Assembly: GCF_003991155.1 (NCBI RefSeq)
Contig: NZ_CP031293.1
DNA: 64,000 bases
DNA from: Escherichia coli
GTDB lineage: Bacteria > Pseudomonadota > Gammaproteobacteria > Enterobacterales > Enterobacteriaceae
Strand: one strand, 5' to 3'
The translations under genes and the position numbers were made by a program. Below, piece after piece: positions 20,568 to 20,744 of this stretch. Within the stretch, counting starts at the first letter, position 1. The number at the start of each line of letters is the position of its first letter. Below the pieces are notes generated by a model. The model saw only the letters and a list, made by a program, of their open reading frames with translations, had not been told where the DNA came from and did no database searches.

Positions 20568-20601
20568 GCCTGATGCGGCGTTAACGCCTTATCCGGCCTA
20601 C
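20568..20601. repeat. REP (repetitive extragenic palindromic) element
   Basis: gcctgatgcggcgttaacgccttatccggcctac matches the E. coli REP consensus. Confidence 0.8.
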
Positions 20602-20744
20602 AAAGTCCTGCAGATTCAATATATTGCAGGTACTGCGTAGATACTGTTATGGCCTGCAAGTTTTTTCCTGGTCCGGTTTCCCGGATTGCAGGCATGCCAG
20701 ACACAGCGCCGTCAGGCGCTGTTGTTTCATCCCTTCCGCGATTT

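Follow-up and report, generated by a model that had tools for sequence, protein, structure and literature searches.

REPs (palindromic units) are known targets of IS621, as reported by Choi, Ohta and Ohtsubo (2003, J Bacteriol 185:4891), and the bridge-RNA mechanism of this element was shown by Durrant et al. (2024, PMC11208160). In that work, 144 of 173 experimental IS621 insertions were located in REPs. The natural target is ATCAGGCCTAC, and a mismatch at its position 4 is tolerated through an rG:dT pair (PMC11208160; PMC11208158), which is visible in the cryo-EM structure (Hiraizumi et al. 2024, PMC11208158). Sites flanked by GCA were enriched and among the top-ranked, and an extended right target guide (RTG) was described (PMC11208160).

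Other insertion sequences also use REPs. As reported by Clement (1999) and Wilde (2001), both cited in PMC1525189, insertion of the IS3-family elements IS1397 and ISKpn1 is likewise site-specific and occurs in BIME-borne REPs of E. coli and Klebsiella. They differ from IS621 in belonging to another family, in using a DDE transposase and in having no guide RNA. Their insertion point is the palindromic-unit loop, whereas the IS621 copy described here sits at the boundary between the GTAG end and the hairpin, a position specified by RNA pairing. As described in PMC12288879 and bioRxiv 10.64898/2026.03.19.712850, ISPpu9 and ISPpu10 (IS110 family, Pseudomonas putida) are also found in REPs and have bridge-type RNAs; compared by description, they differ from IS621 in host, REP family, guide sequences and RNA architecture.

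As for the target context, BIME-1 is composed of y + L + z1, that is, two inverted REPs and a conserved long linker L with a frequent IHF site (PMC3333891). In BIME-1 or RIB/RIP (Bachellier; Boccard and Prentki 1993, summarised in PMC3333891), the GTAG/CTAC ends face a conserved long linker with an IHF-like site and the unit lies at the 3' ends of transcription units. A similar arrangement was observed at the present locus, although its Z-type REP is a short form and the head of its Y-like REP is Z-like (GCCTGATGCG).

This locus lies in a 64-kb stretch of E. coli DNA, hereafter the window. Its IS621 copy shares with the published element the length of 1279 bp, a 99%-identical recombinase, the CT core, the target ATCAGGCCTAC and the GCA/UGC pairing. 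It differs as a minor allele with 24 nucleotide differences, an apical stem-loop of the target-binding loop (TBL) that is longer by one nucleotide, and the substitutions D220N, R238L and Y239H, while the guides are unchanged. The exact 50-nt restored site of the window (CTGATGCGCTATGCTTATCAGGCCTACGCAGTACCTGCAATATATTGAAT) is entry TBL_ATCGGGCCTAC_seq794 in the supplementary data of Durrant et al., and the allele of the site in locus L072 is seq258 in their supplementary file (PMC11208160). REP targeting, the guide mechanism, the position 4 tolerance, the GCA preference and this insertion site are already published; element identity, exact junctions, empty site, guide-target complementarity and population distribution were established in the present analysis. 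What is gained is an amended annotation, with exact IS boundaries, the GTAG end distinguished from the hairpin, and a BIME linker replacing an assumed 'REP half'.

The ybiU/ybiT spacer and its IS621 copy

The spacer is bounded by the convergent genes ybiU (DUF1479/Gig2-like; 19226-20485, plus strand) and ybiT (ABC-F ATPase; 22005-23597, minus strand), and contains a pair of inverted REPs together with a single insertion sequence. The intact REP at 20568-20601 (plus strand) reads GCCTGATGCGGCGTTAACGCCTTATCCGGCCTAC, an imperfect GC-rich hairpin with a Y-like CTAC tail. It is an intact REP, as the initial annotation had proposed, and is canonical for E. coli by its sequence and by the scan for head, tail and hairpin patterns. 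It shows 28/30 identity to REPs beside IS621 at unrelated loci, gives a DNA fold of -6.3 kcal/mol and harbors a potential IS621 site of its own, ATCCGGC-CT-AC-AAA, at 20591-20604. Adjacent to it is a BIME long (L-type) linker of 35 bp between both REPs (20602-20636), which was assigned from a motif scan, the BIME-1 definition in PMC3333891 and a sub-threshold Rfam match to ES036/CssrF (E=0.011). The last three nucleotides of the linker (20634-20636) are TGC, or GCA on the minus strand, and are complementary to the extended RTG. Within the linker, 20614-20626 (ATTCAATATATTG) is IHF-consensus-like, one mismatch away from the IHF consensus in the motif scan.

The second REP is a short Z-type unit on the minus strand, interrupted by the IS. 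Its GTAG end (CTAC on the minus strand) was located at 20637-20640 from the sequence and the empty allele, and its 25-nt hairpin body (GCCTGATGCGCTATGCTTATCAGGC on the minus strand) at 21920-21944 from sequence, REP scan and fold; the left target ATCAGGC lies within the hairpin body at 21920-21926. Both units match the REP head, tail and hairpin patterns and are extragenic, bounded by the ybiU and ybiT stop codons. They are the only canonical REPs detected by the pattern scan in the window. Near-identical REP units adjoin IS621 at more than 25 unrelated loci, and the 600-bp empty-site query had a median of 4 matches per genome. Hairpin stability was rejected as a basis for REP identity, as the fold z values are modest (-1.4 and -2.2) and not significant alone; REP identity thus rests on sequence. 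We read the spacer as a BIME-1-like pair in which a Y-like REP and a short Z-type REP are separated by the 35-bp linker and its IHF-like site, within a full bridge-RNA explanation, insertion included, in which we have high confidence.

Two sub-threshold Rfam matches overlap these repeats, namely naRNA4 (CssrE) on the REP at 20562-20598 (minus strand, E=0.0025) and ES036 (CssrF) on the BIME linker at 20602-20645 (plus strand). Both 'sRNA' families seem to be models of REP/BIME repeats, and ES036/CssrF is read here as a BIME-linker-derived family. The sole match in the Rfam scan of the whole window was a molybdenum cofactor riboswitch (RF01055; 62488-62632, minus strand; 103 bits, E=1.2e-24), which has no relation to the REP/IS finding.

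The insertion sequence occupies 20641-21919 (minus strand) and is a divergent allele of IS621, a member of the IS110 family, with 100% identity over 1279 bp to copies labelled IS621 in RefSeq. It has the features of IS621: a length of 1279 bp, ends without terminal inverted repeats, a flanking CT core and a scarless empty site. The LE-side core copy is inside the IS at 21918-21919, and the RE-side copy is at 20639-20640 (AG on the plus strand). In strain LR-28, both flanks are joined in an empty allele that is 600/600 identical to the window and reads ...TACTGCGTAGGCCTGATAAGC...; the boundaries 20641-21919 are therefore exact. The empty allele L001 reads ...TGCGTAGGCCTGAT.... The recombination point falls between the GTAG tetranucleotide at 20637-20640 and the whole 25-nt hairpin at 21920-21944. 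The initial annotation was right that a second, IS-interrupted REP lies close by, at 35 bp. However, the REP is not divided into two halves flanking the IS as it had supposed, because one side retains only the GTAG end and the other carries the whole hairpin. Its 'left half' at 20620-20640 is mostly BIME linker, and its right part at 21918-21945 does contain the hairpin but also includes 2 nt of the IS, namely the core copy.

The recombinase gene (20745-21725, minus strand) encodes a protein of 326 aa with DEDD RuvC-like and Tnp domains (PF01548 and PF02371, DEDD_Tnp_IS110 and Transposase_20; E=1.5e-24 and 2.7e-26). It is identical to the solved IS621 protein (PDB 8WT6 chain A) at 323/326 positions, the exceptions being D220N, R238L and Y239H, and the catalytic residues D11, E60, D102, D105 and S241 were all found. 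R238L and Y239H are located in the loop bearing the catalytic S241. The window allele differs from the canonical IS621 allele at 24/1279 positions (1.9%) and is rare, with 51 records at at least 99% identity. Given its exact copies at other sites, the allele is probably active.

Bridge RNA guides and their match to the two REPs

The left end of the element contains the putative bridge RNA coding region (21726-21903, minus strand; about 178 nt, limits approximate) with a 5' hairpin, the TBL and a donor-binding loop. The RNA is predicted to fold at -64 kcal/mol (z=-3.9) into three stem-loops as published, a 5' hairpin and two further stem-loops that each have an internal loop, and the region matches published ncRNA sequences. 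With the bridge RNA numbering taken from PMC11208158 and the definition of the left target guide (LTG) from PMC11208160, the LTG read from this copy is AUCGGGCCU (DNA form ATCGGGCCT; 21846-21854, minus strand). The RTG is GUAG (21823-21826) with a 5' UGC extension (21827-21829; minus strand, DNA form TGCGTAG). The left donor guide (LDG) ACAGUAUC (DNA form ACAGTATC; 21773-21780, minus strand) matches the right end of the IS, ...ACAGTAT-CT, and the donor-binding loop is complementary to the joined IS ends ACAGTAT-CT-TGTAT. No matching bridge-RNA family was found in Rfam 15, and the scan for one yielded only the sub-threshold naRNA4 and ES036. The apical stem-loop of the TBL (21830-21845, minus strand) is TAGGTTTTCAACCTG in the window allele versus TGGGTTCTAACCTG in canonical IS621. 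The window form has one extra nucleotide and changes that preserve a short stem, with the same guides as the canonical form.

When the IS is removed, the restored target on the minus strand, ATCAGGC-CT-AC-GCA, pairs with the TBL at 14/14 positions, one G:T wobble counted. This wobble is at position 4 and corresponds to the published rG:dT pair, and GCA pairs with the UGC extension. In contrast, the intact neighbour ATCCGGC-CT-AC-AAA shows a G:G clash at position 4 and pairs with 0/3 of the 3-nt extension. On the bridge-RNA explanation, the neighbouring REP was passed over because its position 4 is C, a true mismatch, and its 3' flank is AAA instead of GCA. Over the restored 64 kb, a perfect 11-mer target occurs once, at the occupied site, and there are three targets with one mismatch, namely the neighbouring REP and two sites outside REPs at 9410 and 27197. 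The recognised feature is a sequence of 11-14 nt, carried incidentally by Z-type REPs, and neither the REP hairpin nor the REP cluster.

Position 4 of the neighbouring target is polymorphic, being ATCCGGCCTAC in the window versus ATCTGGCCTAC in lineages with canonical IS621 at this site (L072 and L073). L073 moreover has a distinct and shorter unit as its neighbouring REP.

It is very likely that IS621 entered the Z-type REP of the BIME-1-like pair by bridge-RNA-guided recombination. In this process, the TBL of the left-end bridge RNA would pair with the Z-type REP site and the donor-binding loop with the joined IS ends. The DEDD/Ser241 recombinase would then exchange strands at the CT core, and the exchange would duplicate CT and part the GTAG end of the REP from its hairpin. 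For RNA expression, recombination chemistry and quantitative preference, this account follows the literature on IS621.

Natural occupancy and competing readings

The IS left end was sought in metagenome contigs, which yielded 64 loci at 32 distinct sites, and in GTDB representative genomes, which yielded 0 matches. The left targets at the 32 sites were ATCAGGC (19 sites), ATCCGGC (2), ATCGGGC (1) and, for the rest, one-off variants. In 516 kb of fetched flanks, ATCAGGCCTAC and ATCCGGCCTAC each occur 13 times as free sites, and 2/13 of the free ATCAGGCCTAC sites carry GCA. Compared with free sites, occupied ones show a roughly ten-fold preference for A/G rather than C at position 4 (Fisher p=0.004, in a small and not fully independent sample).

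Since REP-like hairpins are present at 26/32 distinct natural sites, it could be argued that IS621 recognises REP structure or cluster context, such as the hairpin, the IHF-bound linker or gyrase at BIMEs, and that the whole BIME is the landing pad. Several IS621 sites do lie in Y-L-Z BIMEs sharing the same IHF-like linker, and the window linker also has an IHF-consensus-like motif. However, an exact 1279-bp copy of the window allele was found inside the coding sequence of bcsG (locus L077, strain AR Bank #0349) at ATCTGGC-CT-ACGTG, where there is no REP. This site matches the guide at 10/11 positions, a result in favour of sequence matching and contrary to recognition of REPs. The other non-REP sites (ATCGGGT, ATCGGAC and ATATCCGGC) still resemble the guide as well, non-REP insertions being matched at 6-7 of 7 left-target positions, and a reprogrammed loop retargets insertion to non-REP sequences (PMC11208160). 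Moreover, IS621 was found in a solitary Y-type REP between msrQ and zinT (L067) at ATCCGGC-CT-ACGCA. Because IS621 occurs in a solitary REP and in non-REP DNA, the REP cluster put forward in the initial annotation as the landing pad is not needed, and REPs themselves are likewise not strictly required. Recognition of REP structure or cluster is thus already largely refuted, and we give it very little credence. The initial annotation had named copies in unrelated sequence as evidence against its view; among the sister genomes, such a copy exists formally once, in bcsG, and it is still a 10/11 guide match. As a side observation, this insertion disrupts a cellulose synthesis gene.

Sequence matching does not operate as a strict rule either. 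Other copies of the window allele were sought as exact copies in sister genomes and were found at three sites; besides bcsG, these are REPs at cynR/codA (flank ACGAG) and nhoA/yddE (flank ACATT). At yiiF/fdhE (L002), the target occupied by an IS621 that has the standard guide is ATCCGGCCTACAAA, a 14-mer identical to the site in the intact REP of the window. At msrA/paeA (L068, strain A28), IS621 is in ACCAGGC-CT-ACAAA, the poorer of the two REPs in a Y-L-Z BIME; the other REP has a perfect ATCAGGCCTACGCA, 35 bp from the IS site, which stays free. An identical empty allele exists for this locus, indicating that the poorer site predates the insertion; the empty-site arrangement at msrA/paeA is found in 5,287/5,426 complete genomes. 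Guide match is a probabilistic bias and not a rule, and natural occupancy is only loosely predicted by match quality. The proposal that IS621 chose the best-matching REP therefore holds at the present locus, with 14/14 pairs against a mismatched neighbour that is occupied in 0 genomes, but fails as a general rule at L002 and L068. The suggestion that insertion-prone REPs could be predicted in this way is not a new use, as it has already been carried out experimentally (Durrant et al. 2024, PMC11208160). Because the guide match is probabilistic, REP-based prediction will yield many unoccupied sites and miss non-REP insertions like that in bcsG.

The distribution of the ybiU/ybiT insertion was examined in a population sample of 5,426 complete E. 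coli genomes. The RE-side junction was present in 1,220 of them and the whole occupied locus in about 1,250, from diverse lineages, whereas the empty-site arrangement was present in 2,687. The junction expected for an IS in the neighbouring REP was found in 0/5,426. The canonical IS621 allele is identical at several unrelated sites. In other lineages this canonical allele occupies ybiU/ybiT, with flanks 3.5-4.5% diverged.

These data bear on the possibility that the difference between the two REPs is historical and not mechanistic, namely that one old ybiU/ybiT insertion was inherited by roughly a quarter of E. coli and has little bearing on preference. The breadth of occupancy, with about 1,250 genomes spread over diverse lineages, is in line with such inheritance, and alleles 1.9% apart within flanks 3.5-4.5% apart are compatible with co-divergence from one ancient insertion; at L068, moreover, a poorer site was used beside a perfect one. 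As the site is occupied in many lineages, no 'choice' between REPs need have occurred in this genome, and the IS in the window may be inherited. On the other hand, the 600/600-identical empty allele shows a recent presence/absence change in this lineage, either insertion or precise excision. Both alleles are mobile, each having exact copies at other sites, and the position 4 enrichment of A/G over C across unrelated sites, together with the published assays, supports a real preference. A purely historical origin is thus conceivable, although we are inclined to doubt it. The two alleles at ybiU/ybiT are no proof of independent insertions, because an IS divergence of 1.9% beside a flank divergence of about 4% is also in keeping with a single old insertion. 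The history fits two independent hits on one REP, or one old insertion co-diverging with its host.

Left-end scar and guide variants at related loci

In the znuB/ruvB spacer, a 73-bp left-end scar of IS621 was observed in metagenome loci L010, L015, L039, L049, L056, L058 and L061 and in H93 (E. coli ATCC 11775). The CT core and 60 bp of the left end make up 62 bp of the scar, and (G/T)TATCCGAC-CT-ACGG comes next. The chromosomal target TTATCCGACCT is present on both sides of the fragment, and the break coincides exactly with the guide-coding (LTG) segment. The scar occurs in 149/5,426 complete genomes, and most others sampled have the empty site. It could be the product of an aberrant excision with guide-coding DNA as a surrogate left junction.

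A full-length IS621 in the speB/loiP spacer of strain 2018-05-2CC (L071, at 1758-3036) has the LTG ATCCGAC instead of ATCGGGC, and the left target of its REP is exactly ATCCGAC, equal to its own guide variant. This exact guide variant was found in 1/5,426 genomes. An IS621 of this type is a plausible parent type of the znuB/ruvB scar.

The window and the related loci allow a tentative reading in two parts, which we think of as possible rather than probable: the ybiU/ybiT Z-type REP would be a recurrent natural hotspot, and, at the related loci, aberrant excision could use guide-coding DNA as a surrogate junction. The hotspot part is suggested by the full 14-nt match including GCA, the two IS621 alleles in different lineages and the recent presence/absence change. 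The surrogate-junction part is suggested by the ATCCGAC guide equal to its own flanking REP and by the scar ending exactly at the guide-coding segment. Both parts go beyond the literature consulted. If the hotspot reading is true, the 3-nt RTG extension shapes natural insertion frequencies.

A further IS621 variant, with LTG ATCCGGCCT and RTG extension GCG (CGCGGTAG), was found at L005, L028, L069 and L070, and exactly in 11 genomes. One of its copies, truncated by an IS3, lies downstream of flhA in a Y-type REP whose ATCCGGC matches the guide, and another is at ATCAGGC-CT-ACGAA between yghU and hybG. Target-to-guide gene conversion was considered for the guide variants equal to their flanks and judged less likely, as the ATCCGGC variant is also at this non-matching ATCAGGC site. 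The 11-nt guide of the ATCCGGCCT variant would match the intact REP of the window perfectly.
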